A stretch of DNA of 64,000 bases, taken from IMG/VR virus record IMGVR_UViG_3300045988_179183; one strand, written 5' to 3'. Positions 9,187-61,900 of the stretch are shown piece after piece. The DNA is from a virus. A model generated the notes under the pieces. That model was not told the DNA's origin. It worked only from the letters and a program-made list of their open reading frames with translations, and searched no databases. Within the stretch, counting starts at the first letter, position 1. Each line of letters opens with the position of its first letter. Position numbers and translations under genes: made by a program.

Positions 9187-9229
9187 CTGTTGAAAGAAAC
9201 TGAGTTATTAACTGAAATTTTAAAGGAAT

Positions 9230-9706: not shown

Positions 9707-9710
9707 GATC

Positions 9711-9872: not shown

Positions 9873-9888
9873 AAAAGGAGGATTAAAT

Positions 9889-10568: not shown

Positions 10569-10587
10569 GAAACTTAATTATAACATT

Positions 10588-16245: not shown

Positions 16246-16671
16246 TCACTCTTTGTATTCAAGAACCTCTCGGATAGGTGATTCTTTGACCATGATTATA
16301 TCCCAATCAAGAACACATTCCTTCCACTCCTCCTGTATGATCGAAATGGCGCCATCAGGGTTCTGGCTCCCAACGAGATAGTAGCGTTTGTAATTCTTCC
16401 TCTTCCCGCTATCGATCTCCTCGGAATACACAACGGTTACGTTGAAGAATTTCACCTCATCACTATCGGCATCACTTTTGATGACCTCGTTAACTTTCGA
16501 ACGTGCGATAGAAATGACCCCGTAATCACTGGCATACACCTTCGCATGTTCAATTATCCGGGCTTCCGCCTCCGTGAAGGACATCGAGTCGATGAGAAAA
16601 GTGCGGGTAACACACTTTTCCTTGCCGATCTCATCCACCTCCAATGTCTTGATTTTAACTTCGTAATACAT
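16246..16671 (-). CDS. Hypothetical protein
   Basis: 141-aa ORF. No motif recognised. Confidence 0.5.
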   Translation of the reverse strand: MYYEVKIKTLEVDEIGKEKCVTRTFLIDSMSFTEAEARIIEHAKVYASDYGVISIARSKVNEVIKSDADSDEVKFFNVTVVYSEEIDSGKRKNYKRYYLVGSQNPDGAISIIQEEWKECVLDWDIIMVKESPIREVLEYKE

Positions 16672-43656: not shown

Positions 43657-45624
43657 TTACGTTAGTATCAACACCTCCGTGTTTTCATTCGCGTAAATAG
43701 CCATTTGTTGATTTCTCTCGTCCCAGTTTGTTCGACCGTTCATAAACAGGATCGTATCCTTACAGTTTTTCAAAATATTTTCGAACGATTCATATTCATT
43801 GGACCAGAAAACAACCGTTCGAAACTGGTAATTCTGCTCAAGCGTGATGATGGCGTAATCACCCTTTCGTCCAGTTTTTATTGCGATTTCATACACATAA
43901 CCCCCAGCCGTTAAATTATAACTTTTCGTTTCCAAGGGATCGTCCACTATTTCCGAAAAATCTTTGAAAGGATACTCCGAATCACCAACCATCTCCTTGA
44001 AATAATCCAAGTATAATTTTGAGTAATTGAAAAACGCCAAACCACACAATTTCTTCTGCCTCAAATTATGCCACCACTCTAGTTTCACCTTATCGGGATT
44101 CAACTCAAACACATCTTTTTCCTTATCGATTTTTACCTTATTAACGGTTCTGTATCGTTTTATAAGTTTTATCCTGTCTATAACGTTTGATATTGATTCT
44201 AGCTTATCGAAAGCACCACATGAAATCAAATTTTCTATAACACTTTTATTAACGGCACTTCCTTTCTGTGAATGACGGTCTAAAAATTCATCAAAACCAA
44301 AGTAGGGGCCGTTCTCGGATCTTTCCTTCATGATCTCCGCTTGTGCCTTCTCGCCGACCTGTTTCACTGATGAGATTGACCACACCAAACTTTTATCAGT
44401 GAAATCTGTCTTGATCTTATCCGTCGATTCATTAATATCAGGGGGGGTCACCTTGATATTTCCTATTTCATTTATCTCGTGTAGATAAACGGGGAAATCA
44501 TCATCATCAGCGTAGGAGAACGCAACGGACCAGAAAGCTAACGGATAATTTACTTTTAACCACTGACACGCGTATCCTGTGTTTGCATACGCGACCGCGT
44601 GGGATTTATTGAACTGATAATCAGCCATATTCTCAATTTCCTTCCATGTCTCTTCCGCGTATTTTTGATCAACACCGAAATTCTCGATATAATTTTTCAA
44701 AAATCTTTCCCTGAAGGGTTGAAGTTTCTCCACGTTCTTCTTACCAATCGCACGGCGTGCGCCATCCGCGTCAACAAGATTAAACCCTCCTAACACTTGG
44801 AACATTTTCATTGTCTGCTCCTGCCATATCATGATATACCGGCTACTTTGAAGTATTTCTCCCGCCCCTTTTCTAAATGATACTTCCCTCTCACCCTTTT
44901 TACGAAGGATATACTCGTTATGGAAATTTCCCTCCATAACCCCCGGTCGATATAACCCAATACAGTTTACAAGCTCTGTTATGTTATCGGGCTTTAACAT
45001 CTTACAATATCCGGTTAACCCTTTCGCGCCAAAATGAAATACATCACCATTCCACCCCCTTTGAAAATACGAGTAAACTTTCGGATCATCAAGAGGTAAT
45101 TCATAGAGGTTGATTTCTTCACCAGTATCATCTTTGATTAATTTCAATATATCACCGAACTTACTTAACTGCAAGATTCCCAGAATATCCTCTTTCAAAA
45201 AACCCGCGGTGTCAAGTTCACCACCCTCCCACTCACTGATCAACATATCACCCTGCCGGCGAATCGGATTCCAATGATACATATCCTTTTCATCCGGGTA
45301 AATCATCATGGCACATGCGTGAATCGATTTCGCCTTAGGTTGACCCTGTATCAAGCCGACCATCTCGATGATCTCCGGGTTTCTGTTAATGAAATTCGCG
45401 ACATCTTTTTTCTGACAGGCGATTCTGAATAAATCATCAAAATCCTTCACACCATCTATTTTAGAAGTAAATGAGTTTACCTCTGCGACGGGGACACCTT
45501 TCAACCTACATAGATCCTTGACGGCGGCCTTGACTTGAAGAGTCGTGTAGGTTCCCACGGAGCAAACTTGATCGGCACCGTAACGCTCCTCCATGTATCT
45601 TTTAACTTCCGGTCTTCTCGCCAT
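43657..45624 (-). CDS. dnaE: DNA polymerase III alpha (DnaE), C-terminal segment
   Basis: RRPEVKRYMEERYGADQVCSVGTYTTLQVKAAVKDLCR matches the DnaE palm/fingers. The frame is open upstream to 45693 and encodes ...RLRDIDTDFE (catalytic Asp motif) before the first ATG. Confidence 0.85.
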   Translation of the reverse strand: MARRPEVKRYMEERYGADQVCSVGTYTTLQVKAAVKDLCRLKGVPVAEVNSFTSKIDGVKDFDDLFRIACQKKDVANFINRNPEIIEMVGLIQGQPKAKSIHACAMMIYPDEKDMYHWNPIRRQGDMLISEWEGGELDTAGFLKEDILGILQLSKFGDILKLIKDDTGEEINLYELPLDDPKVYSYFQRGWNGDVFHFGAKGLTGYCKMLKPDNITELVNCIGLYRPGVMEGNFHNEYILRKKGEREVSFRKGAGEILQSSRYIMIWQEQTMKMFQVLGGFNLVDADGARRAIGKKNVEKLQPFRERFLKNYIENFGVDQKYAEETWKEIENMADYQFNKSHAVAYANTGYACQWLKVNYPLAFWSVAFSYADDDDFPVYLHEINEIGNIKVTPPDINESTDKIKTDFTDKSLVWSISSVKQVGEKAQAEIMKERSENGPYFGFDEFLDRHSQKGSAVNKSVIENLISCGAFDKLESISNVIDRIKLIKRYRTVNKVKIDKEKDVFELNPDKVKLEWWHNLRQKKLCGLAFFNYSKLYLDYFKEMVGDSEYPFKDFSEIVDDPLETKSYNLTAGGYVYEIAIKTGRKGDYAIITLEQNYQFRTVVFWSNEYESFENILKNCKDTILFMNGRTNWDERNQQMAIYANENTEVLILT

Positions 45625-45657: not shown

Positions 45658-46643
45658 AGCGAACCGTGCTTGATTCGCTGCCGCTTTTCTAATTTAATTG
45701 ATTTAACTATATATTCCATTTCAAATTTTGTTTTATCTGTTTTACAAATCTAGATTTTTCAATAAAAGACATCACCTTTCTCCTTATATCTGTTTCTCTT
45801 AAATACACCTCCGTATATAAAGGAACCCATTTCCTTTCGAATAGCTTGCCTTTCTGAAGAAAAGTAAGTAATGTATCATGATTACCACTCGGTGATAATG
45901 TTTTTTGTGCGTCATAAGCAGATAGAAATTTATGTACCTCTAAAGTATAAATATTTATCATCACAATCGGTTTCGCATTCGGATTAAGACTCCCTTTCGC
46001 AACACCCCGGTCTTTTCGGATTACTGAGATATGATCCTTCATTTCCTGGGACCATTTATTCCCATAATTACCATTTTTCCCACCCACTCGTCTCGGCGGC
46101 TTAATACCGCCAATTTTTAAATTTAGTGTTCGTCGATCTCTCACCCACTGATGATCAACTACACGTTTTTCCTGAATCAATGCATCATCTACGGTATTAA
46201 AATACAACAAATTCACTCTCTTAAACGCACCAACCCCGTACAATCTCACGCAATTACCTAATGGCATTGGTAAAGGGTCCTTGTAATCTTTTAAACCGGT
46301 GGAGTAATCCGTCTTGATTCCGCCACCAATATAAGAATCTTCCACTGTTTTTGATGAATGAACCCCAACATATACTTTTCCGTTTACCATACAGGTTGTT
46401 TTATACAAAATATTATAAAGGTTATTGTCACCCTTAAACGGATTCTTTTGTCCGTTCGAGCATTTTGCTAATATCTCCTGATCCGACACTAACGATTCTA
46501 TCTCCATCTTTTAAATCTTGAGCTTTTACATCTAATTTTTCTCCCGATCTAAAAATACACACTTTATCATCAAAATCCAACTCTATATCTAAATTATTAT
46601 CGAATGTGATTTTTACAACGTCCACTTCAACTTGTTGACCGAT
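45658..46643 (-). mobile_element. ~1-kb insertion splitting dnaE: GIY-YIG endonuclease cassette, possibly a group I intron (boundaries approximate)
   Basis: DnaE homology stops after FERFLNKGR (codon at 46646-46644) and resumes at ARLRDIDTDF (from ~45657). The endonuclease ORF fills most of the gap. Confidence 0.45.
45707..46507 (-). CDS. GIY-YIG homing endonuclease
   Basis: NILYKTTCMVNGKVYVGVH (GIY...YVG), later GGKNGNYGNKWSQEMKDHIS and NPNAKPIV repeats typical of I-TevI-like enzymes. Confidence 0.75.
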   Translation of the reverse strand: MEIESLVSDQEILAKCSNGQKNPFKGDNNLYNILYKTTCMVNGKVYVGVHSSKTVEDSYIGGGIKTDYSTGLKDYKDPLPMPLGNCVRLYGVGAFKRVNLLYFNTVDDALIQEKRVVDHQWVRDRRTLNLKIGGIKPPRRVGGKNGNYGNKWSQEMKDHISVIRKDRGVAKGSLNPNAKPIVMINIYTLEVHKFLSAYDAQKTLSPSGNHDTLLTFLQKGKLFERKWVPLYTEVYLRETDIRRKVMSFIEKSRFVKQIKQNLKWNI

Positions 46644-48056
46644 ACGACCTTTATTCAGAAAACGTTCGAATAGCAAATCGTAATCAAACGGGTTAATGTG
46701 CGTCAGACCCAATAAATAGGCGACGAGGGAGCCACAAGCTGATCCACGGCCGAACCCTACGAGTATACCTTGACGTTTACACCATTGGGTGATATCCCAA
46801 AGTATCAAGAAATAATCAACAACATCTCCGTATTTAATTACATCTATCTCAGTTTCAAGTCTATCAAGATACTTCTCTTGTTCATCAACATCACTTATCC
46901 CCATGCTATTAAACCCATCCGCGACCAAGGATATAAGCATATCAACTTTTGATCCATCATATTTCTTGAACTCCTCCTCGGTCATTTTATATTTAGGAAG
47001 ATGACGTTGTGATAGATCGACCTTGAAATTACTACACCTTTCAGCGATATCATTTGTGTTCTCGATCGCGAATCCGATGATATCAAGCATAATATCTTGG
47101 TCATTATCAGAGAATAACTCCCTAATCTCCATCAAATATTCTTCGTTACATTTGAAGTATTGATTTTTTGAAAAATCGTTACTTATACCCGCGGATGAAT
47201 TCAACGCTTTTTTCAGATAGAAATATTCTTGGTCCAAATAATACGCATCACAGATATTTGTGGGCAACATGGAACTTGAGAAATATTCCTGAAGATTCAA
47301 AAGATATACCCTATCTCTTTCATTTGAATCAAACTTAACTGAATCAAGTTGATAGTATGTGTTCATCAATTCTTTCGGCACATCTTTAAATTGCAGGCTC
47401 TTCGGGTCAATCACGATAATTAATCCCTCTCTCAATGACAGAAACTTTCCTTCATCGATCCTCACATTATTATCAACGTTAATTTCCTTGTTGATAGAAA
47501 GAAGGTTCATCCACCCTGTTTCATCCACGACGTAAACCTTCACATCGTACAGAAGATCTTTCTTTTGATTGAACACGGTAACGGTTTCACCGATCACCGG
47601 TTTCAAACCGTGTTTCTGGCATTCCAACTGAAATTTAAGCACACCCGCAAGTGTGTTTTTCTCACAGATACCCAAAATACTCACACCGAAAAAATTCGCT
47701 TTTCGACACCAATCTCCATAATCTCCGGTTCCGTTCAATAATTCAAACGGACCTCTCACTCCCAGAAATGATTCGGTCGGTAAATCACTATCAACCTTAC
47801 CGATATATTTCAAGAGTTTCAACTTCACTTTCGATTCATTACCCTTTCTCAAAGTGTAATACAGACGGCCGAACTTATAGATGTAATTATTCGCAGTGAT
47901 GGGTGTTCCTATGTAATTAAACCCTCGATCAAACAGAAGTCCGTCGACATTGGGCCCTGATAATTCATATGTATCACCATCCATTGTGATAATACCCAGG
48001 TCGGAAATATCATATATAAATCCATTGCGATCGAGATACGATAACAGTTCTTTCAT
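46434..48056 (-). CDS. dnaE: DNA polymerase III alpha (DnaE), N-terminal segment (PHP-like domain plus start of palm)
   Basis: GFGRGSACGSLVAYLLGLTHINPFDYDLLFERFLNKGR is the DnaE signature. The last 69 codons (46437-46643) have no DnaE counterpart. Confidence 0.85.
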   Translation of the reverse strand: MKELLSYLDRNGFIYDISDLGIITMDGDTYELSGPNVDGLLFDRGFNYIGTPITANNYIYKFGRLYYTLRKGNESKVKLKLLKYIGKVDSDLPTESFLGVRGPFELLNGTGDYGDWCRKANFFGVSILGICEKNTLAGVLKFQLECQKHGLKPVIGETVTVFNQKKDLLYDVKVYVVDETGWMNLLSINKEINVDNNVRIDEGKFLSLREGLIIVIDPKSLQFKDVPKELMNTYYQLDSVKFDSNERDRVYLLNLQEYFSSSMLPTNICDAYYLDQEYFYLKKALNSSAGISNDFSKNQYFKCNEEYLMEIRELFSDNDQDIMLDIIGFAIENTNDIAERCSNFKVDLSQRHLPKYKMTEEEFKKYDGSKVDMLISLVADGFNSMGISDVDEQEKYLDRLETEIDVIKYGDVVDYFLILWDITQWCKRQGILVGFGRGSACGSLVAYLLGLTHINPFDYDLLFERFLNKGRIGQQVEVDVVKITFDNNLDIELDFDDKVCIFRSGEKLDVKAQDLKDGDRIVSVGSGDISKMLERTKESV

Positions 48057-48079
48057 ATTTTAAATATAATGGGAACCCT

Positions 48080-48097
48080 TTTACGGGGCCCCGTAAA
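48080..48097 (-). terminator. 18-bp GC-cored perfect palindrome (hairpin) between genes
   Basis: tttacggggccccgtaaa. No clear U-tract, so terminator function is uncertain. Confidence 0.3.
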
Positions 48098-48104
48098 TTC
48101 AAAT

Positions 48105-48701
48105 TTATATCTCGCCCTGGCTGGAATCACAACTCGATGCCTCAATTGCCTTAACACACTTGTAAATATACACGTTGCTTTTTCCAAGAATGGTTGCTAT
48201 TTCAGCTTTTTTCTTTCCCTCAGAGAGAAGTTGTTTGATTTGAGGTAATAGTGGGTTACTGAGAGAGATCACACCGTTTCTCTTCCCGGTCACTGACTGT
48301 TTCTTCGCCTTCTTCTCAGCCGGTTTTTCATCCACACTTTTATCCGTTTCAACTGTGTGCTTCCTGAAATCATCCGGGTTGAAATTTTCACGGAATGAAA
48401 GGATCGCATCCAACTCACTCTCTTCAAGATCCTTCATATCGCGATCATCAACAATCGCGTCAACCCTGGCGTATAAATCGCATGCGCCAAACGCCGCCAG
48501 TTGATCGTAAAATTCGGTTGCCTGATCGCACTTGCTCTTTACATCCTGACCCAGTTGATCCGCAACCGAATTCTTTCGAGCCTCATATTCTTCCAATGTC
48601 TCAACTAATTTTAAATTAGACATTGTGATATAATTTTTAATTCCACGAATTGATGCTTCTTTACGAAGTTCCTCACGGGTCATTTCACTAAACTTTTTCA
48701 T
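48105..48701 (-). CDS. Putative DNA-binding protein (SAP-like N-terminus, HTH-like C-terminus)
   Basis: MTREELRKEASIRGIKNYITMSNLKLVETLEE (SAP-like); KKKAEIATILGKSNVYIYKCVKAIE (HTH-like). Confidence 0.45.
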   Translation of the reverse strand: MKKFSEMTREELRKEASIRGIKNYITMSNLKLVETLEEYEARKNSVADQLGQDVKSKCDQATEFYDQLAAFGACDLYARVDAIVDDRDMKDLEESELDAILSFRENFNPDDFRKHTVETDKSVDEKPAEKKAKKQSVTGKRNGVISLSNPLLPQIKQLLSEGKKKAEIATILGKSNVYIYKCVKAIEASSCDSSQGEI

Positions 48702-48745: not shown

Positions 48746-48776
48746 TAAAGATACACAATGTTTATTTATTTACCAA
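48746..48776 (-). promoter_or_regulatory. Promoter (-7 TATCTTTA)
   Basis: TTGG-N20/21-TATCTTTA, 44 nt upstream of ATG 48701. Abuts the stop of 48766..49569. Confidence 0.55.
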
Positions 48777-49569
48777 CGAATCCAGCAAAAAATCGGTACT
48801 TTTCAATATTAAATTTTATGTCATTCCATTGAGATTGTTGTACATCGATACCCACCATCTTATGAAGCATCACGGGAATTTTTTCTTCAAGTCCGCTATC
48901 CGTATATCTTACACCGTGTAAACCATGAATAACTGGATTAGATGTATCGATACTTCTGATAAAGTGATACTTATCCTCGTTATATTGGCAAACTTCTTGC
49001 GGTAATACTGTGCCCAGTAAATGCAACGGCTTTTCACAATCCATAACACCGTGATTGATGAGCTGGTCAATGAACATTTTTCTTCCTCTACAATATGCCT
49101 TCGATGTATTCTCATCAGCCGCGAGACTTAAATAAATGGGTAAGTTGAAAGGTAGCGCAACCATATCACAGCATTCGACCATGCATTTATAGCATTCGAC
49201 AAGTTCATTCCAACTTATCCCCTGAACAACACCGATTGAATAGCTGCACGATATTTTCTCCCACGTTCTCGCCATTCTCATCGTTTCTTTCGCATTTCTC
49301 AAAACATCGGGTAAAACGTAATAAGTTGGCTTCAGTGCCTTAATCCATGAACGAAATCTATTTGCGTCAAATGCCGACCCCAATTCGAACACTGAATTGT
49401 CAAGAATTACCTCGCGTCCCTTGTTAACAAGCGCATCCATGAAAAATTCGAAATAATCGCCACCTATATCGGGATCTTCAAACAAGTGAACAAGTGCGTA
49501 ATCATAATCAGTCATCGATTGAACCTTGTTCATAATCGATAACGGTGCTTCATGCGCTATCTTAATCAT
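48766..49569 (-). CDS. Uncharacterised protein, possibly a second TGT/DpdA-fold paralog
   Basis: REVILDNSVFELG vs DpdA DRIWLDSGGFTLF; GVVQGISWNE vs SIGGLAQGRE; PLHLLGT vs YVHLLGC. An 8-nt overlap with the queC stop suggests coupling. Confidence 0.4.
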   Translation of the reverse strand: MIKIAHEAPLSIMNKVQSMTDYDYALVHLFEDPDIGGDYFEFFMDALVNKGREVILDNSVFELGSAFDANRFRSWIKALKPTYYVLPDVLRNAKETMRMARTWEKISCSYSIGVVQGISWNELVECYKCMVECCDMVALPFNLPIYLSLAADENTSKAYCRGRKMFIDQLINHGVMDCEKPLHLLGTVLPQEVCQYNEDKYHFIRSIDTSNPVIHGLHGVRYTDSGLEEKIPVMLHKMVGIDVQQSQWNDIKFNIEKYRFFAGFVGK

Positions 49570-51292
49570 TGTGTTGATATTTTATGGGATCCGTCATTCC
49601 GTTTAATTCAAACGCTTCGAGCCGCTCGGTACAATTATGCACCAAATATCCCTCACAAATAAATGAACCAGCACTAGTCTTAATATCATATACATGTGCC
49701 TCCTTAACTGGTTCATCTATTTTATTTACCACCACTTGGTCTAAAAGCCTTATTGAATTATATGTGCCTAACTTTTCAAGCATCGACGCACGTTTTCCCG
49801 CACCGTACTTTAATGTAATTATGTACGGTCTTGTTACTCTCCAAGTTTGCATAAGGGTACCGCCCTCTTTAAAACCGGGCGTAACGGATTGCGACCTGTC
49901 ACACTTAATCCCCAACAATGATAATGCTTTATCGATTTGAATACACTTTTCTTTATTCACAATCACTGCTTGGCTTATAGAAAAACCGAATGATCCATTT
50001 GATTTATTATGACAAGCACACCCATCAGCTATCAACATTCCGTTTAAATACCCGCGCAAATACTCAGGGTGTTCATTAAATTTTGTCTTCTCAAGAAACA
50101 CAGGACCATAACCGCCACCAGCACGGTGCATGTTGGTATCCTCCCTGTAAGTGATTTTTACATCACATGGCTTGATATATTTATCATAAAGAGACCAAAA
50201 TTCTTCCAATACATCGAACTCCTTTTGAAATGTATGAACACCCCGTGTGTCAATGGATCCATCACCATCAGCAAATCCACGTAAATAACCCAGGGCGAAT
50301 TTTTCATCATCAACCTCTTTTCTTGTATTTGATACTGGCCAAAATTTCACCATATAAGTAGCATCCTTTCTCTTCATCTCCTCGTACTTTCTATATCTTG
50401 GCCTTAACTTCATATTTGAAGCATACACATAATGATCCTTCGTTAAAAGAAGACCCGCCATATCATATACCGGTTGAATACCATTATCAAACTTATCCAA
50501 TACCTTCGCCACACAAATTTTCTTCGTGTTTTCATCCACGGACCACACTTCGTCTCCAATACAAATATCCTTAATTTGCTTCCATGTATTATCACTCATC
50601 AGTACTTTCTGCGATTCTTCTATACACGACCCACACCTTCCACACGATCTTCCTTCTGGATCGGGATTATAGCACGTGTGAGTGTTACCCAGAACCAAAT
50701 TAATTTCATAATCATTGAACCCGAGGATCGTCATCGCACGTAACCCTTCGGCAAGTACACCGCCCTTATCCATGTGATTGAACGGAGCTTCGTATCCCAC
50801 TCTTTCACTACCCCAATTCGATACTTTAAACGCGTGCTCACAAGCGATTCGAGATTCCTCGGATGTATCAGGATAACAGCAATGATCGCCGCTATGTAGG
50901 CCTAAAAACACATCAACATTACTCTCCGTTTTATTCGCCCATGAAAGTGCCTTCCCATAAATGATAGCGGAAAAGATCACGTTTCTATTTTCAATAACCG
51001 TTGATTTCATATTTTCGGACGCGTAATGACCTTCCGGTATAGGTTCACCACCTACATGAAGGGACGAATTACTGTCACTGAAACAATCCCTCAGATCGAT
51101 AATCTGGTGTGATAACTTAAACCTCTTACCTTGCAAGAACTCAATATTTCTTTTCACCTTCTCCAATTCAACCTGATGCTTCTGACCGTATTGAAAAGAA
51201 TAAGCCTTAACTTCGTAATCATGAGCAAGTAAATACATGAGCAAGCACGTACTATCCAATCCGCCCGATAAACTTAAAATCGCCTTTTTCAT
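49562..51292 (-). CDS. queC: 7-cyano-7-deazaguanine (preQ0) synthase QueC, interrupted by one intein
   Basis: MKKAILSLSGGLDST (PP-loop), Zn-site Cys cluster SCGRCGS[intein]CTERLEAF. Start trimmed from 51349 to ATG 51292, 1 nt after the upstream stop. Confidence 0.85.
   Translation of the reverse strand: MKKAILSLSGGLDSTCLLMYLLAHDYEVKAYSFQYGQKHQVELEKVKRNIEFLQGKRFKLSHQIIDLRDCFSDSNSSLHVGGEPIPEGHYASENMKSTVIENRNVIFSAIIYGKALSWANKTESNVDVFLGLHSGDHCCYPDTSEESRIACEHAFKVSNWGSERVGYEAPFNHMDKGGVLAEGLRAMTILGFNDYEINLVLGNTHTCYNPDPEGRSCGRCGSCIEESQKVLMSDNTWKQIKDICIGDEVWSVDENTKKICVAKVLDKFDNGIQPVYDMAGLLLTKDHYVYASNMKLRPRYRKYEEMKRKDATYMVKFWPVSNTRKEVDDEKFALGYLRGFADGDGSIDTRGVHTFQKEFDVLEEFWSLYDKYIKPCDVKITYREDTNMHRAGGGYGPVFLEKTKFNEHPEYLRGYLNGMLIADGCACHNKSNGSFGFSISQAVIVNKEKCIQIDKALSLLGIKCDRSQSVTPGFKEGGTLMQTWRVTRPYIITLKYGAGKRASMLEKLGTYNSIRLLDQVVVNKIDEPVKEAHVYDIKTSAGSFICEGYLVHNCTERLEAFELNGMTDPIKYQHND
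49634..50626 (-). mobile_element. Intein (331 aa) with LAGLIDADG endonuclease, in QueC
   Basis: CIEESQKVLMSDNTWKQIKDICIGDEVWSV (block A), LLLTKDHYV (block B), LGYLRGFADGDGS and LRGYLNGMLIADGCA, ends EGYLVHN|C. Confidence 0.8.
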
Positions 51293-51293
51293 T

Positions 51294-51878
51294 TTATAAT
51301 CTGTAATTAAATTCCATAATATCCAATACCTGGGAAACTCTTTCGTCAATACTTCCGCTCACATAGTGTATCCCTCGTGGTGCGAAGTCTTGTAACATAC
51401 GCGCGTTTTTCTCAAATAAACGATCGATTTCCTTTTGAAATACTTCATCAGTTGACCGAACTCCGTCGTCCACGATTTTAAACTCCGGCCTCAGTACAAT
51501 GTGATGGCTGTAAAGGGGCTCTATATGAAATAGAAGTTGGGTGACCGTGTCAACCATTTCATCCCAGAGAGGCCTATCCTCGCTCGATGACCTGTCCCGG
51601 TTATACTCCGTGTAGCATAGAACATCTAATAAACATCTATCGGAAATAATATGATCATGCGCTGACATCGCTGACTCGATAATTTCTTTCACATACGAAG
51701 TTGCGATCCAAAGTTGATCATAAATACCCGCTTCCTTATTAATCTTTATGCCGCGATCATTACCTTTCCTTGAAGGAGATCCCATAAAGAGAGATCCCTT
51801 CAAACACTCCTCCTTTTTCAACGCCTCAATTAACGTTGTCTTACCTGTGCATTGAGCACCTGAAATTGATATAATCAT
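51294..51878 (-). CDS. P-loop nucleoside/nucleotide kinase-like protein
   Basis: MIISISGAQCTGKTTLIEAL (Walker A at the extreme N-terminus), later ISDRCLLD (kinase-like DR motif). Confidence 0.5.
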   Translation of the reverse strand: MIISISGAQCTGKTTLIEALKKEECLKGSLFMGSPSRKGNDRGIKINKEAGIYDQLWIATSYVKEIIESAMSAHDHIISDRCLLDVLCYTEYNRDRSSSEDRPLWDEMVDTVTQLLFHIEPLYSHHIVLRPEFKIVDDGVRSTDEVFQKEIDRLFEKNARMLQDFAPRGIHYVSGSIDERVSQVLDIMEFNYRL

Positions 51879-51898
51879 TTTTAAACAATTAATTTATT

Positions 51899-51958
51899 TC
51901 TAACACCATAAAGATACACAAAGTGTATCGAATTATCAACAAAAACAGAGATTATTTT
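51899..51958 (-). repeat. Promoter cassette variant, copy B
   Basis: Near-identical to 30801-30860. Perfect inverted repeat GATACACAAAGTGTATC at 51913-51929. Confidence 0.9.
51909..51943 (-). promoter_or_regulatory. Promoter (-7 TATCTTTA) with a perfect 7-3-7 inverted repeat
   Basis: 30 nt upstream of ATG 51878. An internal promoter inside the deazaguanine cluster. Confidence 0.6.
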
Positions 51959-52452
51959 CTCTGTTTGTCGTTTTGATATTGGCCGTTATATAAATCTTCC
52001 TCGTTTACATCCGTGCAATCATAACAGTAGAACTGGGCCACGCGGGCGTTCTTCTCGATCGTGATTGTGTGAAACACTTCCATGAACGTACCCATCGAAT
52101 CAGTGTGAAAACCCGCGTCGAAAATCGATGAATAAATCCAAGCACCGCACCGGGCAACTGAACTTCGCTGTACTATCCGACCCATTTTGTTTTTGGGTAT
52201 GTTACAACCTTCAATGAAATCAACCATGTAATACCCCGGAGGTAGATGCCAAACTTCGTTTCCATTTATATCAGGAAAACATCGAACTTCTTCGTATGAG
52301 GGTAACATTGTTTTGCCCTCGCGGGGTATGAATCCATGACCTTTCACAACACTTACCTTTCTCAACCGAATATCACATCCGTGCTGGGTTAGATTCTCTT
52401 CTAAATGATTAACGATAACACCTTCTCCGTGTAATTCCTTTCCGTTTAACAT
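51952..52452 (-). CDS. dCTP deaminase / dUTPase-superfamily protein
   Basis: GRIVQRSSVARCGAWIYSSIFDAGFHTDSMGTFMEVF...ARVAQF matches the RSS.aR.G...DpGf.G pattern of Dcd/Dut trimeric enzymes. Confidence 0.65.
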   Translation of the reverse strand: MLNGKELHGEGVIVNHLEENLTQHGCDIRLRKVSVVKGHGFIPREGKTMLPSYEEVRCFPDINGNEVWHLPPGYYMVDFIEGCNIPKNKMGRIVQRSSVARCGAWIYSSIFDAGFHTDSMGTFMEVFHTITIEKNARVAQFYCYDCTDVNEEDLYNGQYQNDKQRK

Positions 52453-52476
52453 AATCTCTAATTTATTAAAATTTAA

Positions 52477-53373
52477 CTATTCAATTATTTCATCATTCTG
52501 TTTTTCATACAAGAACTCTCTCGCTCTCGCGTCAGCGAACGCGTACAAAACTATATCTCGACTCAGATAATGATACGGTATCCTGCCAGATAGATCGGGG
52601 CCGGCACTCCCATACGCATCTTGCCCCGGTACGAGGGTTCCCTCTGCCACTTTCTTCAAAAAATTATTACGTGCCTTCTCAATATTGATGGCGTACCTGA
52701 AAATAGAGAAATCGACCGAATCCGGCATGACAAACCGGGTTGTTTCAACGTTTGAACATCCCAGGAGATGAACGTATTTCCCTTTATCGCGAGCGTACTT
52801 CATCATCTTTCCCAGTTCATCCCTGTACACATGCCATTCCCTACCCTGAGCCAGACCTCCTATCGAAAGGATGGGGTAGAGGGGCGAGTCACAGAGATCC
52901 TTCCAGTATTGAAAACCCTGATGCATTTTAAATACCGGTGCGGGATAGTACCCTGTTATTTCCTTGATCTCGTCTCTCAGATAATTTTTAGGTGATAACA
53001 GGTTATCATCTTTTCTAAAATACTCGTTATCAAGTTCAAAACACATTTTAAACGGATACATTTTAAGAAACCGAAGAAACTTTTTCTTCATTTTCTCGCA
53101 TTCATTCCAAAAATCAGGGTTGTTTTCACCCAGTTTCTTCTGTTTTTTGAATAATGTGAAACCACCGGAATCCAACCATATTCGATCGCCTCCAACAACG
53201 GTTTGAATAAATTTAATATACCCGGCGGTCATATCAACGGTTGAAATTAGATAGTCGTTATCATGTGCAAGCAAAAGTTTTTCCAAGACCTTATCGGACC
53301 TACAACTACACACCAGACCACCACCCAATCCCATCACAAGCCTTTTTTTAGGTTTTTCAAACATATCAATCAA
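52477..53373 (-). CDS. dpdA: DpdA-type (TGT-family) DNA 7-deazaguanine transglycosylase
   Basis: WLDSGGFTLF (TGT DSGGFQ motif), LSIGGLAQG (GGLAVGE), VHLLG (YLMGVG). Embedded among preQ0 synthesis genes. Confidence 0.7.
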   Translation of the reverse strand: MIDMFEKPKKRLVMGLGGGLVCSCRSDKVLEKLLLAHDNDYLISTVDMTAGYIKFIQTVVGGDRIWLDSGGFTLFKKQKKLGENNPDFWNECEKMKKKFLRFLKMYPFKMCFELDNEYFRKDDNLLSPKNYLRDEIKEITGYYPAPVFKMHQGFQYWKDLCDSPLYPILSIGGLAQGREWHVYRDELGKMMKYARDKGKYVHLLGCSNVETTRFVMPDSVDFSIFRYAINIEKARNNFLKKVAEGTLVPGQDAYGSAGPDLSGRIPYHYLSRDIVLYAFADARAREFLYEKQNDEIIE

Positions 53374-53803
53374 TACCAGCTATTAATTTATCAAGTTCAT
53401 CTTTGTTATCTTGAAGGGTTGTGATACCGATTTCTTTCATCGCATCCTTGTTGCCTGATTTTTCAACAAGACGTTGAAGGCCTGTATAATTCCATGAGGA
53501 ATACTCACCAACTTTATTATCAGCGACCAAAAAACCAACCTTTTCCTCGTCCGTTAAACCACTAACGACTAAAACATCAAACTCTTCAACGCCAAGTAGC
53601 TGTAACGCTTTGAATCTCGTGTTTCCCGCAAGTATCGTTCCTTCTTCATCAACAACAATAGGATTGATATATCCATATTCTTGGATGCTTTTTGCAACAA
53701 TTTTCGCGGATTTCGAATTTTTTCGAGGATTCAATGGGTGGCAGCGTATGTCACCCACGCTCACCCATTTAATTTCCTTCCGTATTTTCTTTATCGCCGA
53801 CAT
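53366..53803 (-). CDS. ParB N-terminal-domain (ParB-like nuclease/NTPase) protein
   Basis: VGDIRCHPLNPRKN ... INPIVVDEEGTILAGNTRFKALQLLG is the ParBc box pattern. 8-nt overlap with the dpdA start. Confidence 0.7.
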   Translation of the reverse strand: MSAIKKIRKEIKWVSVGDIRCHPLNPRKNSKSAKIVAKSIQEYGYINPIVVDEEGTILAGNTRFKALQLLGVEEFDVLVVSGLTDEEKVGFLVADNKVGEYSSWNYTGLQRLVEKSGNKDAMKEIGITTLQDNKDELDKLIAGID

Positions 53804-53806
53804 ATT

Positions 53807-54448
53807 TTATTTTCTCCCGAGTTTATAAATCTGTATCGCTCTTAAAAACTCATCTCGGCTATTCATCTCATTTGTTAAAAACGCCCCCGAACAATAGTGG
53901 GTTGTCATCGTACTATTATCTTCCGCGCCCCGCATACTCACGCACATATGTTCCGCCTCAATATAAACTGCGATACCCAGCACTGTGTCGCCGAATATGT
54001 TAACCAAATAATCATGAATCTGACGAGTTAATTGTTCTTGTAATTGAGGCCGTTTGGCGAACCAGTGAACTATTCTGTTTAGTTTCGAAAGACCAATAAC
54101 TTGGCCACTTTCCTTGCTGATATACGCCAAACTACAGAATCCTGTGAACGGAAGTAAATGGTGTGAACACAATGAATTCACCTCGATCCCATGTTCAATT
54201 ACCATACCTGAGTATCCTGAACTTGGGAATACCGCCAATTTCGGAGGTGCAGAATACGCACCTGACGTGATTTCATTGACAAACATTTTCGCAACCCTGT
54301 ACGGTGTTTTTATCATGTTAGGGTCATTCTTCCAATCATACCCCAGGGCCTCCAAGAACTTACCGTACGCCTCGGTGGCCCTTGCCAACATCTCGTTTCT
54401 ATCATCATCGGAAAGAACGACGTTCCCTCCTGCCATTATTTTTTTCAT
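53807..54448 (-). CDS. folE: GTP cyclohydrolase I
   Basis: SLCSHHLLPFTGFCSLAYI and RPQLQEQLTRQI match FolE CEHHLLPF / QERLT motifs. Confidence 0.9.
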   Translation of the reverse strand: MKKIMAGGNVVLSDDDRNEMLARATEAYGKFLEALGYDWKNDPNMIKTPYRVAKMFVNEITSGAYSAPPKLAVFPSSGYSGMVIEHGIEVNSLCSHHLLPFTGFCSLAYISKESGQVIGLSKLNRIVHWFAKRPQLQEQLTRQIHDYLVNIFGDTVLGIAVYIEAEHMCVSMRGAEDNSTMTTHYCSGAFLTNEMNSRDEFLRAIQIYKLGRK

Positions 54449-54473
54449 ATTTCGTGTTTTATCTCGTTTTTAA

Positions 54474-55238
54474 CTAAGCATCTCTCTTATCTCCGAAGAT
54501 TATTATATGTAAGCGGTCAGAGTAGAAGTAGCCCAAATCTATACATCTCTGTGCCAACCATTTTCTTTTCTCTGCCAGTTTCTCCTCGGTATCCCCCTCC
54601 GGCATCAGATAGACTATTACAGGCCAGAAGGGGTCCAGTTTAGATACCTCCTTCTTAATTTTCCGAACTTGTCTCTCGACTTCCTTTATATCATCCTCCG
54701 AGGACACCACATATTTCAACTGCGAGAATTTCGATTCCATGATCCATGACACTATAGCGGGGATATTCTCCCTCGTTTTCGCGTGTTTCTCCGCGAATTC
54801 GCCCGAACTCGGAATTGAACTCTTCAATTTAGGTGAGATTGATACGACGTCTACGTACGTATCCTCATCCAGTACATCACCTCTCGCGATGGTTCCGTTC
54901 GTTTCCATGCTCACACTCAACTTATGTCTCCGACCTATCTCGATCAACGATCTCAACAATTCGGGATGAAGGGTCGGTTCTCCCCCGGTAATAAGCATGC
55001 ATTTTATCTGAGGGTTCATGATTATGATATCGACGACATCGTTCAATGAATATTTACCCTTTTCCGGGTTCCACGAGCTGTAGGCCGTGTCACATATACT
55101 CCCTTTAAAAGTACATCTCAGGTTACACCCAGATGTTCTTATAAGAATATGGGGGACCCCCACCTTCATACCCTCTCCCTGTATACAGGTGTGCAAATCA
55201 ATAATCGGTTGAATTTCTGAATAATCCATTTTTAACAT
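54474..55238 (-). CDS. queE: 7-carboxy-7-deazaguanine synthase QueE (radical SAM)
   Basis: IQGEGMKVGVPHILIRTSGCNLRCTFKGSICDT: QueE-type radical-SAM Cys cluster; LITGGEPTLH. Confidence 0.85.
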   Translation of the reverse strand: MLKMDYSEIQPIIDLHTCIQGEGMKVGVPHILIRTSGCNLRCTFKGSICDTAYSSWNPEKGKYSLNDVVDIIIMNPQIKCMLITGGEPTLHPELLRSLIEIGRRHKLSVSMETNGTIARGDVLDEDTYVDVVSISPKLKSSIPSSGEFAEKHAKTRENIPAIVSWIMESKFSQLKYVVSSEDDIKEVERQVRKIKKEVSKLDPFWPVIVYLMPEGDTEEKLAEKRKWLAQRCIDLGYFYSDRLHIIIFGDKRDA

Positions 55239-55465
55239 AAATAAGCGTTATACAATTCTATAAACTCGGCGAGATCCAGTTCTGAGAATCTCCGTTCTTT
55301 CGCAATCTCTTTAATAAGATCAAGTTGATTTTCATAAAGCTCGTCCGCCATCTCACCATACCCGCTCACCCTTAAATCAATCACAGGCAATGAAAGTTCA
55401 AATGCCAGACTTTCATCAAACCCATAGCGATCAACAAGATCATTTAGTTCCTTTTTCGTTATCAT
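55232..55465 (-). CDS. Small acidic protein of unknown function, coupled between queD and queE
   Basis: 77-aa ORF. Overlaps the queD stop (4 nt) and the queE start (7 nt). Confidence 0.5.
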   Translation of the reverse strand: MITKKELNDLVDRYGFDESLAFELSLPVIDLRVSGYGEMADELYENQLDLIKEIAKERRFSELDLAEFIELYNAYLC

Positions 55466-56037
55466 AACTTCACTTGTAGTTCAACCTTTGGGTTCACGAA
55501 TTTAATCCCTCGAAAAAGTTTATGATAAATCTCAGTTTTTGCCAGTGAAGGGCTAACTTCTATTTCTTCGGGATACATTTCCAAGTATCTATCATAATCA
55601 TTTCGATCCGATTCGGCATAACCAGTATCTGTTTCATGAACTCGCACTGATTGCACAACCACGTTACCCTCACCATTGTTAAATTCTGTTTTTTCCAATA
55701 TCGATTCAAAACAAGCGAAAAACATGGATGAGAGTAATTCAGCGGAGGGATTGCAAGGTAAAATTATCCACCTATCATTCATCGCCTGTATAAAATTTTT
55801 GTAAACCTCGTTATCCTTCGCCCACAATAAATGAGTATGATCGAATAAATCAACGACTTCTTTAAAATTACCAAGAAGACCGAAATCGACGACCATCCCT
55901 GCGTTATCCAAACGATCCGAGGTCAAAAATAACTCAACTTTATAGCTGTGTCCGTGAATTGAATGTGAACATCTGTCCGATGTACAATTTCTCACAATAT
56001 GGCTTCCCTCAAACTTAAACAATTTTCTAATTATCAT
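55462..56037 (-). CDS. queD: 6-carboxy-5,6,7,8-tetrahydropterin synthase QueD
   Basis: FKFEGSHIVRNCTSDRCSHSIHGHSYKVELFL: the QueD/PTPS Cys plus HGH motif. Confidence 0.85.
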   Translation of the reverse strand: MIIRKLFKFEGSHIVRNCTSDRCSHSIHGHSYKVELFLTSDRLDNAGMVVDFGLLGNFKEVVDLFDHTHLLWAKDNEVYKNFIQAMNDRWIILPCNPSAELLSSMFFACFESILEKTEFNNGEGNVVVQSVRVHETDTGYAESDRNDYDRYLEMYPEEIEVSPSLAKTEIYHKLFRGIKFVNPKVELQVKL

Positions 56038-56064
56038 ACTATCAATATTTTTAAATCAACACCA

Positions 56065-56096
56065 TAAAGATACACAATGTTTATCAGATAAACAAA
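56065..56096 (-). promoter_or_regulatory. Promoter (-33 TTTG / -7 TATCTTTA) for the deazaguanine operon
   Basis: TTTG-N20-TATCTTTA, 27 nt upstream of queD ATG 56037. Confidence 0.6.
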
Positions 56097-58982: not shown

Positions 58983-61900
58983 TCAATCCAAATCAACAAA
59001 ATCAATCATTGCCTGTACGTTGTTTTCCCTCAAATCTTGTATTGCCATGAACGATGACATACATATATCATCATGTCCACAAACTGATTCAAGAGTCCCT
59101 TTCTTTGAGTTAAACGCGATTGAATTAAATTCACCAAACATCGTATCAACCAACTTTCGTGTGTTTTCATCTCCGTAAGGCACCCTCAAACGTGCACTTT
59201 CAAAAAACGCTGATAGTGAGGGTAGACCTGATTTCAGATCCTTTTTATTCCCTTCAGTTGTGATAAATTCCTCGACATTAACTAATCCCCTCTCTTTCGC
59301 CATACCCGCAAGAATTCTTTGAAATCCATTCGACTCACACACGGATTTGTTCGGTTTATATCTCGCGTTAAATTCAATAAGTTTATTCACTTGAAGATCA
59401 TGGCTCGCACCCTGCTCTCTAAATATATTTATAAGATATATCAATCCGTGTGCATCCATACCCCATACAGTGTATACTGTATAATCGGCACCCACATTAC
59501 CCGATATCGCAAAATCACATCCCACGACAACCCTGACTAACTTTATGGGGTAACTTTCTATATCATTTGCGAAACTGATATGTTCCATCCCACGTATCGA
59601 TCTTTTCAGAAATTCATACGGGAAAATCGTTGACGTGTCCGCGATCGGCACAACTAGATATTCTCGGTTGAAAACTAACGTTCCAAGTGATTTCCGTTCC
59701 TCCGTTAACCTTTTAAACGTAAGACGATCAGGTGCTAACAGTTGACCATTTGGGAAAACCGCCGGGTATTCAAATACCTTGAATCGGCCATCTTTTTTTA
59801 AATCCCCGTAAATATCCGTTGCCGAATACGGTGTGTTGTGTGATATTATCCCATTCGAAATAAACCGATGAGAAATTGGGATTTTGAAATCAACGGTGTA
59901 AGACTCACTCTCAATTATCGATTTTATCGGTGCGAAATGATACTTCAAATTCATATTACTCAAAATAATCTGAACATCAGGATCATTTTGAGGTAAAGAT
60001 AAAATCCATTTTTTTATCGGTCCGTTCATTCTTTTAAAAGAATGAACTTTCGTATAAAAATCCCCCGATCTCATACCGTAAAATTTCATCTTATCATTAC
60101 CCAACGGATATTTTGATCGAATCTTTCTTAATATCACCGATTGAAACGGTATTCCTTTATCAATGCAAGAGGATTCTCTCCTAGTTTCTCGCGGAACCTT
60201 CCCTTTTCCTGAATAAGTGAACCCGATTTTCTCCATGAATAGTTTCACGCTCGAATTTTTGCTTATAACCAAATTGTATCCTGTTCGGTTTGATTTAACT
60301 AATTCGGTTGATTGGCATTTTTTCTTCTCAATACGTGAATCAATCCCCATGTTAAGAAGAAGTATTTGAATCTGCTGGATTAAACGAAAGCTCGTTGAAA
60401 AATAGCTTACATTTATTCCTTTATCTGAACGATGTCCGTGATAGCAGCATCCATCGCCATCAAAACACCCTCGAAGAAACCATATAACATCCTCCTCGGA
60501 CGCACTCATGATTTTATCAGGAATTGTCTTGGTATGCGAATACATCCCTTTTCGATACCCTAAACTCAACCACGTGGAGATTTTCTCCTTGCTATTAAAC
60601 GACATCCCTATGTGATTTTTCTTAGGGTGATACCCCCTCTCATTAATCAGAAAATTTCTTATACCGGGATTCTTTTTTGTTATCGTGACCCTATTTCCAT
60701 AACCACTTAAATCCAACGTACCGTCCGCTATACAAAGCCCGATTTCATAAAGCTCCTCCCCTTCTATACCAAGAGAACGACCCCAAATATTTGACCCCAT
60801 CTTAAACGCGACAAAATCTCCTTCATACAAATCTTTCGCGTTAACCCATTCGAATAAGCCCGTTTCCGAATTACATCTAAGTAAAGGATGAATGAAACTT
60901 GTTTCAATCTCCAATCCGTTTGAAAGGGTTATGATTTTTGTGGGGGTTTTTCCGTTTACGTAATAGTCTGTCGCGTTAACAAATCCCTCACCATCATGAA
61001 TGTTCATATCAAGAGGGAAAAACCCCTTCTCTCTTTCAATATTAACAGGAGATAATTTGCCAATTTCAGTTAAACCGTTTTCGGTAAACACGTACGTATC
61101 TGGTCTCACACAACCGAGTACACATAAATAGCCGAACGGTTCCACGATCGGAGTGATTGACCCGTAAAAAACTTCATGAAGCTTCTCCCTTTGCTCTTGT
61201 GAATACAACGAACTTTCATCAGGCAGGTCGTCGCATACGACGGCACCAACGTGAAGACCTCGAATCATGGAATCTTTCGATCTCAAATGGAGGATTGAAT
61301 CTGTTTCAGTCGTGATTGATGTCGCGGCTAACTTAGCTTTTCCGTTGCGATTCAATTTCTCCCGAAGAATATCATTTTGCTCTATCTCGGAAATAATCAT
61401 CGCGATGTGTTTCTTGCCGAGTGTTTCATTATTCGTAATCATACACGTTTCCTTACGATTCTTATTGTCGATACTATCCCTAAGAAACGTGGTTGGTCGG
61501 TCATAAGAATATAACCTCCATAAAATGAATGCAAAACACCCCTCGTAACTATTATGTACAACGGTCCCATCTTTCAAGAGAAAAAGGTGATCTCCGTCAC
61601 AAGAAAAACCAACATAATCGCCATCACCGATACATTCAACCTTGAGAGAGGTTGATAAATTATCCTGCACCGTGATTTTTGAAGGTATCTTCTTTCTTTC
61701 TATTTTCACAGGAATTTCATCAACATCTCCCGAAATTGTTATCCTGTAATGAGTATAATCATGAAGGATGTTTTCACCCTTTAATGTTTTCACCTTTACA
61801 TCTGCCGTCCGAGTTATAATCGAATTACATCTGAATCCCAATGATTGAGCAAGTCTTTGCGTTTGCTCTATTAAATTCCTGTCCTTAAACCCAATTTCAA

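Follow-up and report, generated by a model that had tools for sequence, protein, structure and literature searches.

Which of two transglycosylase-like genes places a 7-deazaguanine in the DNA of an uncultured phage, and whether it does so before or after replication, is the question raised by a module of ten closely packed open reading frames (ORFs) in the IMG/VR virus record IMGVR_UViG_3300045988_179183, of which a stretch of 64,000 nucleotides (the window) was analyzed. A first-pass annotation had listed the ten ORFs, all on the minus strand, in the order QueD, a 77-aa ORF, QueE, FolE, a ParB-like protein (ParB-N), a first TGT-like protein (TGT298), a dUTPase-fold protein, a P-loop kinase-like protein, QueC and a second TGT-like protein of 267 aa, and all are present. 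Pfam identifies seven of the ten, which bears out the families assigned earlier (QueD, QueE, FolE, ParB_N, the DCD/dUTPase fold, P-loop AAA_28 and QueC) and supports the earlier view of a 7-deazaguanine DNA-modification module supplied with preQ0 by FolE, QueD, QueE and QueC; the 77-aa, 298-aa and 267-aa ORFs have no Pfam match. Judged from the genes encoded, FolE, QueD, QueE and spliced QueC very probably make preQ0 from GTP, with the transglycosylase DpdA3 (the 267-aa ORF) encoded alongside, and the modified base would be dPreQ0 (2'-deoxy-7-cyano-7-deazaguanosine), probably at about 100% of G positions. Likeness to other DpdA3 phages predicts that dPreQ0 replaces all or nearly all G.

The QueC ORF reaches 576 aa (ATG at 51292) because its zinc motif is interrupted by an intein at CGRCGS/C. 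The first-pass annotation had recognized the gene as QueC and missed the 331-aa intein. Besides QueC, the ORF carries Pfam LAGLIDADG_3, Intein_splicing and Hint domains, and the boundaries read CGRCGS/CIEES...LVHN/CTERLEAF, the slashes marking the junctions. All features of an intein are found, namely Cys1, a C-terminal His-Asn followed by a +1 Cys, the Hint fold, a homing-endonuclease domain and an intein-free allele. The latter, a QueC of 245 aa from another metagenome (L004), reads CGKCGTCMERKEAF and aligns across the intein gap.

Neither QueF nor a DpdN-type formyltransferase, MazG, PRTase or Gat-QueC was found among the window proteins (DpdC and ArcS were not searched directly) or in precomputed Pfam lists covering ~0-59 kb of the window. 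As neither QueF nor any other tailoring enzyme turned up, dPreQ0, already the default end product in the first-pass annotation, is kept as the predicted base. Two points weigh against this assignment: QueC could stop at ADG, and tailoring genes could sit in the ~38 kb of genome that the window does not cover. Other relatives of the window phage (L100/L101, ~12968) have a DpdN-like formyltransferase gene after DpdA3, with no QueF in view, so the final base may differ between near relatives. In one class of DpdA3 modules, a 211-aa protein starting with MCSIIG and weakly matching GATase_7 (Ntn glutamine amidotransferase type) is encoded between QueC and the Dcd-like gene (L074, 14025-14660, and eight other marine loci); it may be a separate Gat subunit.

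Two families of TGT-like proteins

By tblastn homology, the 267-aa ORF, left unassigned in the first-pass annotation, is the recognized DpdA of the module, i.e. the published DpdA3; the two TGT-like genes had been swapped. Identity reaches 43% (2e-57) with the DpdA3 annotated in Flavobacterium phage immuto_2-6A and 38% (1e-40) with CP220 gp056; across Campylobacter phages of the CP220 group it ranges from 37 to 39%. The ORF matches phrog_19058 (2e-46), and a hidden Markov model (HMM) of the DpdA3 family matches phiST gp042 at 1e-15. The AlphaFold2 (AF2) model (pLDDT 94) has a TGT, 4q8n, as top PDB match (E 6.7e-6, TM 0.60), generic TIM barrels coming next. D57 (LDNSxFE), D88 (PD) and D208 (SxDTSNP) are invariant in 30 homologues, the roles of acid/base, base recognition and nucleophile being assigned to them by motif order only. 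The DpdA3 family was defined by Cui et al. (2023) and linked to complete dG replacement (PMC10516641). In the searchable literature DpdA3 is found by name only in that paper and its preprint, and the words ParB and kinase have 0 occurrences each in this defining literature (PMC10516641).

TGT298, which the first-pass annotation had taken for the DpdA of the module, is indeed TGT-like by PHROG match, fold and conserved DSGGF/Asp residues, and belongs to another, undescribed family. Its gene likely starts at the ATG at 53364, 1 nt past the ParB-N stop codon, and encodes 295 aa. The sole PHROG match is phrog_887, 'queuine tRNA-ribosyltransferase' (1.6e-10), by which a profile search places the protein inside the TGT/DpdA family, a placement outside it being what the first-pass annotation had named as contrary evidence. 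The AF2 model (pLDDT 93) has Zymomonas mobilis TGT as best, weak PDB fold match (E 1.7e-4, TM 0.46), and phage TGT/DpdA-like proteins as best matches in BFVD (6.5e-8). D68 and F72 (within DSGGF), D115 and D221 are invariant or nearly so in 44 homologues, as would suit a catalytic Asp triad and a base-stacking Phe, roles not confirmed by superposition, and DSGGF aligns with LDSGAF of phage 9g DpdA1. Comparison by hhalign gave 45 columns around the HLLGC region at 18% probability against the DpdA3 family, and a marginal hit (E 0.003, 10% probability, 135 columns) against 9g DpdA1; the TGT298 family profile finds no TGT or DpdA among PDB sequences, nor the Pfam TGT family. The missing Pfam and PDB sequence matches are not disqualifying, since the validated 9g DpdA1 likewise lacks them. 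NCBIfam and PADLOC, like Pfam, give no match for either TGT-like ORF. On these sequence comparisons TGT298 clusters with no named DpdA subfamily, sequences of bDpdA, DpdA2 and DpdA4 not having been compared directly. Net charge and isoelectric point (pI) were tried as proxies for DNA binding: DpdA3 proteins are acidic (median pI 5.5), TGT298 proteins neutral to basic. The proxy is non-discriminating and was discarded because 9g DpdA1, which acts on DNA, is acidic too.

The TGT298 family is restricted to phages. Among 50,697 phage records only Campylobacter phage CC_R7 has a match, an unannotated protein (47%), and a scan of 185,579 species genomes returned four contigs of metagenome-assembled genomes only, probably phage DNA. 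ParB-N is its usual partner. NPR and GNTRFKA, the latter corresponding to the ParB nucleotide-binding motif GxxRxxA, are conserved in 16 ParB-N homologues, and the protein matches the N-terminal part of phage DNA methyltransferases (PADLOC MTase_II, 2.1e-16; phrog_498). The ParB-N gene lies directly upstream of TGT298 in ~10 of 12 clusters, and DpdA3 resides at the same locus in nine of the 12. CC_R7 keeps the pair, its 'DNA binding protein' gene (53% to ParB-N) adjoining the TGT298 homologue, with DpdA3 elsewhere in the genome. TGT298 was not seen without DpdA3 where enough genome is available, and none of 69 diverse DpdA3 loci from IMG/VR (L021-L089; marine, freshwater and other) has the ParB-N and TGT298 cassette. 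The cassette is an optional add-on to DpdA3 modules. Variation was observed among relatives: three (L103-L105, ~9084-10885; ~85% identical) carry two tandem TGT298 copies, 72% identical to each other, and in L107 (1602-2869) the TGT298 match spans 1268 nt instead of 894 nt, which suggests that the gene holds an insertion (intron, intein or frameshift).

Kinase and nucleotide pyrophosphatase genes beside DpdA3

The first-pass annotation had set the ParB-like, Dcd-like and kinase-like genes aside as unassigned extras; comparison of loci identifies them instead as conserved members of the module. The kinase-like protein, a putative deoxynucleotide or deoxynucleoside kinase, matches phrog_2107 'thymidylate kinase' (1e-27), and its profile retrieves thymidylate kinase (5e-8), deoxyguanosine kinase (1.4e-7), other deoxynucleoside kinases and the NadR ribosylnicotinamide kinase, the first two from the PDB. 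Homologues in cultured phages, immuto_68 and CP220 gp057, adjoin or lie near DpdA3. The Dcd-like protein matches the NCBIfam archaeal-type dUTPase at 3.7e-27, under the curated cut-off. Its profile hits the PDB entry 9w59, a 'probable dUTPase' (2.1e-23), well ahead of dCTP deaminases, and the dUTPase motifs are invariant in the family. A dCTP deaminase was considered and rejected, as the position of the deaminase Glu varies (E, H, R) and dUTPases score far better. Best match and variable Glu together indicate a deoxynucleoside triphosphate (dNTP) pyrophosphatase, to which no base specificity is assigned.

The neighbors of DpdA3 were surveyed in loci fetched from IMG/VR (80 for DpdA3, 55 for TGT298), in which ORFs were called and searched with HMMs of the window proteins and of immuto and CP220 neighbors. 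Dereplication of the DpdA3 proteins at 80% identity, with loci having less than 4 kb of flank on either side discarded, left 35 lineages; genes were counted at less than 5 kb from DpdA3. FolE, QueD, QueE and QueC are co-encoded with DpdA3 in the window and likewise in most lineages (QueE 27, FolE 27, QueC 23, QueD 23). The kinase family was found in 26 lineages, and so was a dNTP phosphohydrolase of any type, be it Dcd-like (16), MazG-like (9) or HD (1); MazG-like and Dcd-like proteins never occur together (0/35). Kinase and dNTP pyrophosphatase are linked to DpdA3 as closely as the preQ0 genes are. Two gene orders are usual, QueD-QueE-PRT-FolE-MazG-DpdA3-DpdN-kinase-QueF and QueE-QueD-FolE-DpdA3-DpdN-(kinase)-QueF-QueC-Dcd-like. 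No further family of nucleotide metabolism is found among the top-ranking conserved neighbors of DpdA3; DNA polymerase genes often are.

All three phages in which full substitution has been determined experimentally have the triad of NTPase, DpdA3 and kinase or P-loop protein. In CP220 it is made up by gp055 (HD plus AAA_33 P-loop), gp056 (DpdA3) and gp057 (kinase), in immuto by MazG, DpdA3, DpdN and kinase, in phiST by MazG, an AAA_18 P-loop protein and DpdA3, followed by a split DnaE. QueC, a DpdA3-like gene, the kinase and DNA polymerase are consecutive in CC_R7. A canonical dUTPase is fused to DpdA3 in a metagenomic locus (L147, 1150-2376), QueF, DpdN, kinase, QueC and DnaE coming next. 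In another locus (L032, 6123-7079), which is devoid of DpdN, the kinase is fused to a weakly matching GNAT acetyltransferase-like domain. The module of phage 9g, in which DpdA1 substitutes G partially, has no kinase or NTPase inside.

The sole close homologue of the Dcd-like protein in a cultured phage (41%, 2e-27) belongs to the 103-kb Chryseobacterium phage MA9V-3 (L150; PV245944.1, ~41.9-50.6 kb), where it is encoded with QueD, QueE, FolE and an unannotated DpdA3-like protein (HMM 1e-20); QueC is not in view at this locus. The DNA of MA9V-3 is probably modified, and the phage could act as a cultured experimental proxy. The kinase family is not exclusive to DpdA3 phages, a notion rejected since 89 Streptomyces phage records have it. 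In the Streptomyces record examined, Karimac (L149, 67.8-68.4 kb), the kinase is annotated as thymidylate kinase and adjoins a methyltransferase.

Routes of base insertion

The caveat of the first-pass annotation that the mechanism of insertion could differ is the important part of the finding. The model tentatively put forward has two arms, DpdA3, kinase and pyrophosphatase acting before replication and ParB-N with TGT298 acting on DNA, the product being fully dPreQ0 DNA. In the first arm, the chances of which are evenly balanced, the dUTPase-fold enzyme would cleave a dNTP, by proposal dGTP, to the monophosphate (dNMP) and pyrophosphate, both depleting dGTP and supplying dGMP. DpdA3 would then swap guanine for preQ0 on the free deoxynucleotide by the double displacement of TGT enzymes, one Asp serving as nucleophile and another as acid/base. 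The P-loop kinase would phosphorylate the modified dNMP, host NDP kinase would make the triphosphate, and the split DnaE of the phage, encoded just downstream, would incorporate it. In the second arm, by analogy a transglycosylase working at the DNA level and given a probability of about one half, ParB-N would load on or scan DNA through its GxxRxxA motif and help TGT298 to exchange residual G in the duplex. That DpdA3 is the first TGT-superfamily enzyme to act on free deoxynucleotides (dGMP), with pyrophosphatase and kinase feeding the polymerase, while a ParB-type NTP-dependent clamp recruits the second transglycosylase ('pool plus polish'), is rather unlikely to hold in every part.

The pre-replicative arm is favored because the triad is conserved and interleaved with the pathway genes, shows non-orthologous displacement, and includes a fusion protein. 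Complete base replacement in phages (hydroxymethylcytosine in T4, hydroxymethyluracil in SPO1, Z in S-2L) is, besides, generally pre-replicative, which favors the same arm. Published data argue in the same direction. In phiST and immuto DNA, containing 302,000 dDG and 345,000 fdPreQ1 per 10^6 nt, respectively, neither dG nor any intermediate was detected; DpdA3 failed in the E. coli plasmid assay, and ADG nucleoside was detected in cells infected by CP220 (PMC10516641).

Several points weigh against the two-arm model. The kinase may act on dNMPs or dTMP in general, and no 7-deazaguanine genes are found near it in Karimac. A housekeeping role as dUTPases is conceivable for the Dcd-like and MazG proteins, and would alone explain why no genome has both. 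At less than 5 kb from DpdA3 the kinase is missing in nine of the 35 lineages, and so is the NTPase in nine; the substrate specificity of neither enzyme can be read from its sequence. To our knowledge, all characterized enzymes of the TGT superfamily act on polynucleotides. ParB-N lacks both the DGQQR motif and the C-terminal domain of the bacterial protein DpdB, and is only by analogy a putative binder of DNA and of TGT298. The need for the second arm is left unexplained if the first alone gives 100% substitution. The authors defining DpdA3 propose post-replicative insertion (PMC10516641).

This last view, published for all DpdA families, DpdA3 included (PMC10516641), leads to the main rival explanation of the module, which is possible, though doubtful: DpdA3 and TGT298 would both exchange G for preQ0 in replicated DNA, perhaps differing in context or timing, ParB-N would aid one of the two, and kinase and dUTPase would be ordinary enzymes traveling with the replication-modification block. 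Both TGT-like proteins keep the putative catalytic Asp residues of TGTs and have a TGT as top PDB fold match. The presence of the kinase family in Streptomyces phages, with no 7-deazaguanine genes nearby in the example examined, the best scores of the dUTPase-fold protein against dUTPases, and the acidic nature of 9g DpdA1, proven to act on DNA and as acidic as DpdA3, all speak for it, and tandem TGT298 paralogues 72% identical would fit specificities for different sequence contexts. A wholly post-replicative route leaves unexplained, however, the tight linkage of kinase and NTPase, their interleaving (DpdA3-DpdN-kinase-QueF) and non-orthologous displacement, the location of both beside DpdA3 in CP220 and CC_R7 despite the scattering of the pathway genes, and the dUTPase-DpdA3 fusion. 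Nor does it account for DpdA3 phages in which neither dG nor intermediates are detected, or for DpdA3 failing by itself on a plasmid, and the known post-replicative enzymes DpdA1, DpdA2 and bDpdA reach a substitution of at most ~30% (PMC10516641).

The model of the first-pass annotation, in which TGT298 is the single DpdA and inserts preQ0 partially, as in 9g and CAjan, the 267-aa ORF being accessory or unrelated, is improbable. TGT298 is nearer to phage TGT/DpdA-like proteins than DpdA3 is (phrog_887, BFVD, the weak hhalign match to 9g), but the 267-aa ORF is clearly orthologous to DpdA3 and has every residue invariant in that family, and DpdA3 is universal, occurring without TGT298 in the 69 IMG/VR loci mentioned above, while TGT298 is in no sufficiently long genome found without it. 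That DNA is not modified at all, the module boosting the queuosine precursor of the host or modifying tRNA through TGT-like enzymes, is very improbable: the TGT fold is ancestrally that of a tRNA enzyme, and this option was weighed by Hutinet et al. (2019; PMC6884629) for phages with no recognized DpdA, but DpdA3 phages experimentally carry fully substituted DNA (PMC10516641), one TGT-like protein has a ParB-N partner, the module adjoins replication and DNA polymerase genes, and no tRNA is encoded in the window.

A modified-dGTP route had been proposed in 2019 for Campylobacter phages (PMC6884629), the post-replicative route in 2023, after DpdA3 was found (PMC10516641). Returning to the two-arm model, DpdA3, kinase and dNTP pyrophosphatase would provide a concrete set of enzymes for how 100% substitution arises, and the ParB-N and TGT298 cassette would mean that DpdA depends on a ParB fold in phages as well as in bacteria. 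Phage DNA that contains 7-deazaguanines resists restriction enzymes and Cas9 in vitro (PMC10484667), and newly described defence glycosylases target such DNA (bioRxiv 10.1101/2025.10.29.685425). If the prediction is true, there are phages of gut Bacteroidota whose DNA is free of guanine and fully dPreQ0, which bears on sequencing bias, phage therapy design, and the enzymatic production of 7-deaza-dNTPs and modified DNA.

The module, the phage and related systems

Features of the predicted dPreQ0 module and its surroundings (window coordinates)
Feature	Coordinates	Strand	Size	Basis or remark
Module, ten closely packed ORFs	48766-56037	-		order as given in the text
QueD, 6-carboxy-tetrahydropterin synthase	55462..56037	-	191 aa	Pfam PTPS 3.5e-22
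Acidic ORF, pI 4.2	55232..55465	-	77 aa	no family match
QueE, 7-carboxy-7-deazaguanine synthase	54474..55238	-	254 aa	Pfam Radical_SAM 5.4e-11 + Fer4_12
FolE, GTP cyclohydrolase I	53807..54448	-	213 aa	Pfam GTP_cyclohydroI 1.3e-48
ParB-N protein	53366..53803	-	145 aa	Pfam ParB_N 4.3e-08; phrog_620 1.3e-33
TGT298, DpdA-like TGT-fold transglycosylase	52477..53364 (ATG) or 52477..53373 (TTG)	-	295 or 298 aa	PHROG, fold, motifs
dUTPase-fold (Dcd/Dut-like) dNTP pyrophosphatase	51952..52452	-	166 aa	Pfam DCD 1.6e-13
P-loop kinase-like, deoxynucleotide/deoxynucleoside	51294..51878	-	194 aa	Pfam AAA_28 4.5e-13
QueC (preQ0 synthase) with intein	49562..51292	-	precursor 576 aa, spliced 245 aa	Pfam QueC 4.6e-36
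LAGLIDADG intein	49634..50626	-	331 aa	in CxxCxxC zinc motif of QueC
DpdA3	48766..49569	-	267 aa	TGT-like family of complete-dG-replacement phages
Putative DNA-binding protein, possibly last gene of unit	48105..48701	-	198 aa	weak KorB/KorA helix-turn-helix matches
Promoter-like motif 1, TTGTGTATCTTTATGGTGTT	56058..56077	-		20 nt upstream of QueD ATG
Promoter-like motif 2, TTGTGTATCTTTATGGTGTT	51902..51921	-		23 nt upstream of kinase ATG
Terminator-like hairpin, then T-run	51943..51966	-		overlaps end of Dcd-like gene, just before motif 2

Three of the nine gene junctions overlap (by 4, 7 and 8 nt), and not most of them as had been stated earlier; five are gaps of 1-25 nt, and one, a gap of 73 nt, contains a hairpin and a promoter-like motif. 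Seven copies of the 20-nt motif TTGTGTATCTTTATGGTGTT, each on the minus strand, are found in the window (at 19380, 21735, 26274, 30805, 35094, 51902 and 56058), where 0.01 would be expected. Together with its flanks the motif reads TTTG-N20-TAnnTTTA, which we take to resemble the -33/-7 promoter consensus of Bacteroides. The copies keep upstream flanks of 45-70 nt of two types, one with a terminator-like hairpin, and the cassette of hairpin and motif is found again upstream of the copy at 30805. The motif looks like a phage-specific promoter of Bacteroidota type. A generic sigma-70 scan of the window gave 23 sites vs. 26.8 expected, i.e. chance level, so that the promoter assignment is drawn from the repeated motif only; the two promoters of the first-pass annotation both overlap this genuine repeat, and find no support in the sigma-70 scan. 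The two motifs would split the module in one unit running from QueD to the Dcd-like gene and another comprising kinase, QueC, DpdA3 and possibly the 198-aa ORF. This ORF is conserved in relatives and a hairpin (48072-48092) comes after it; the transcription unit probably extends to both, the ORF being possibly a member of the module, as a candidate only. Neither a preQ1 riboswitch nor any other family was found by the Rfam scan of the window.

The 77-aa ORF finds nothing in Pfam, PHROGs, NCBIfam or PADLOC, and does not resemble the small ORF that occupies this position in immuto. It is present in ~30 of the fetched loci, every one from the phage group of the window, and is missing from two members of this group (L100/L101). 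QueE is 33% identical to immuto QueE.

The phage has no close cultured relative, megablast of the module vs. the 50,697 phage records giving no match. Numerous metagenome contigs of ~100 kb encode the identical 267-aa protein and repeat the gene order at 94-100% protein identity; the 267-aa protein is indexed in 151 blocks of the metagenome collection. The nearest cultured relatives of the polymerase are found in Cellulophaga phage phiST (41.6%) and in Tenacibaculum, Chryseobacterium and Bacteroides DAC phages, the best match overall in an unannotated contig from human faeces. Because these polymerase relatives are Bacteroidota phages and the best match is faecal, the source is probably an uncultured phage of ~102 kb with a gut Bacteroidota host.

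Two ORFs make up DnaE (DNA polymerase III alpha), one of 540 aa for the PHP/N-terminal part (46434-48056) and one of 655 aa for the C-terminal part (43657-45624), and a 266-aa ORF lies in between (45707-46507); phiST gp044/gp045 are similarly split, as two adjacent ORFs. More inteins reside in the window, in a 1017-aa portal protein (3764-6817; Phage_portal, Intein_splicing and LAGLIDADG), in RecA of ~660 aa (38356-40356; LAGLIDADG) and in a 1337-aa protein (58983-62996; Hom_end_hint). Their presence differs among metagenome alleles (L004, L006, L007), as lengths vary for helicase (833/472 aa), DnaE (934/655), RecA (660/310) and QueC (576/245). A 141-aa DUF4494 protein is encoded at 16246-16671, and the immuto module has a DUF4494 gene between FolE and MazG (L002, 8032-8229). 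A 190-aa ORF (34488-35060) matches the C-terminal end of ThyX only (Thy1, 4.2e-06), and a 580-aa NUDIX and DUF5856 protein is encoded ~1.4 kb beyond the window start (L145, 18245-19987).

Among known systems, the pre-replicative pathways of T4 (gp56 dCTPase, gp42 dCMP hydroxymethylase, gp1 dNMP kinase) and S-2L (DatZ, MazZ, PurZ) follow the logic proposed for the first arm, a dNTP pyrophosphatase, a base modifier at the dNMP level and a dNMP kinase achieving complete replacement. The enzyme proposed for the dNMP level is here a TGT-fold base exchanger, which has no precedent, and its substrate assignments, as those of its partners, are proposals only. Modules with DpdA1 or DpdA2 (9g, CAjan, iggy, Vibrio phages) share with the window the preQ0 pathway and a TGT-like transglycosylase, and 9g DpdA1 shares with TGT298 the LDSGGF, 'P-x-F-H' and 'GGL' motifs. 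Yet the profile similarity of the two is weak, ParB-N, kinase and NTPase are all missing from the 9g module, and phages of this type replace at most ~30% of G.

Bacterial DpdA needs the ParB-fold ATPase DpdB for the insertion of preQ0 into DNA (PMC10164549). In the Salmonella Montevideo system as in the cassette, a ParB-fold gene immediately adjoins that of a TGT-fold enzyme, in which the Asp of DSG(G) would be the acid/base and another Asp the nucleophile, both roles being putative for TGT298. ParB-N, of 145 aa, has GxxRxxA, but neither DGQQR nor the C-terminal alpha-helical (SspE-like) domain of DpdB; TGT298 is too short for the insertion Ins8 (DpdA residues 256-383) and has no detectable sequence match to the solved structures of DpdA or TGT. 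DpdC, for which no direct search was made, and the restriction genes D-K are not seen here, the context being phage counter-defence and not a restriction-modification island. The relation of ParB-N/TGT298 to DpdB/DpdA is one of analogy, not orthology.

The closest likeness is to the DpdA3 phages CP220, phiST and immuto (PMC10516641), which have in common with the window the DpdA3 orthologue, FolE, QueD and QueE, a P-loop kinase-like gene and a dNTP phosphohydrolase beside DpdA3, and an adjoining DNA polymerase gene, split in phiST as it is here (41.6% identity). In contrast to these phages, the pathway ends at QueC, QueF, DpdN and DpdL being missing, and therefore predicts dPreQ0, for which full substitution has yet to be reported; the NTPase is of dUTPase/Dcd fold instead of MazG or HD, QueC has an intein, and the ParB-N and TGT298 cassette is found in none of the stretches examined of those phages. 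The module is of a known kind, that of DpdA3-type replacement, and new in its preQ0 end-point, its dUTPase-fold NTPase, its intein-bearing QueC, and a second family of transglycosylases accompanied by ParB-N.

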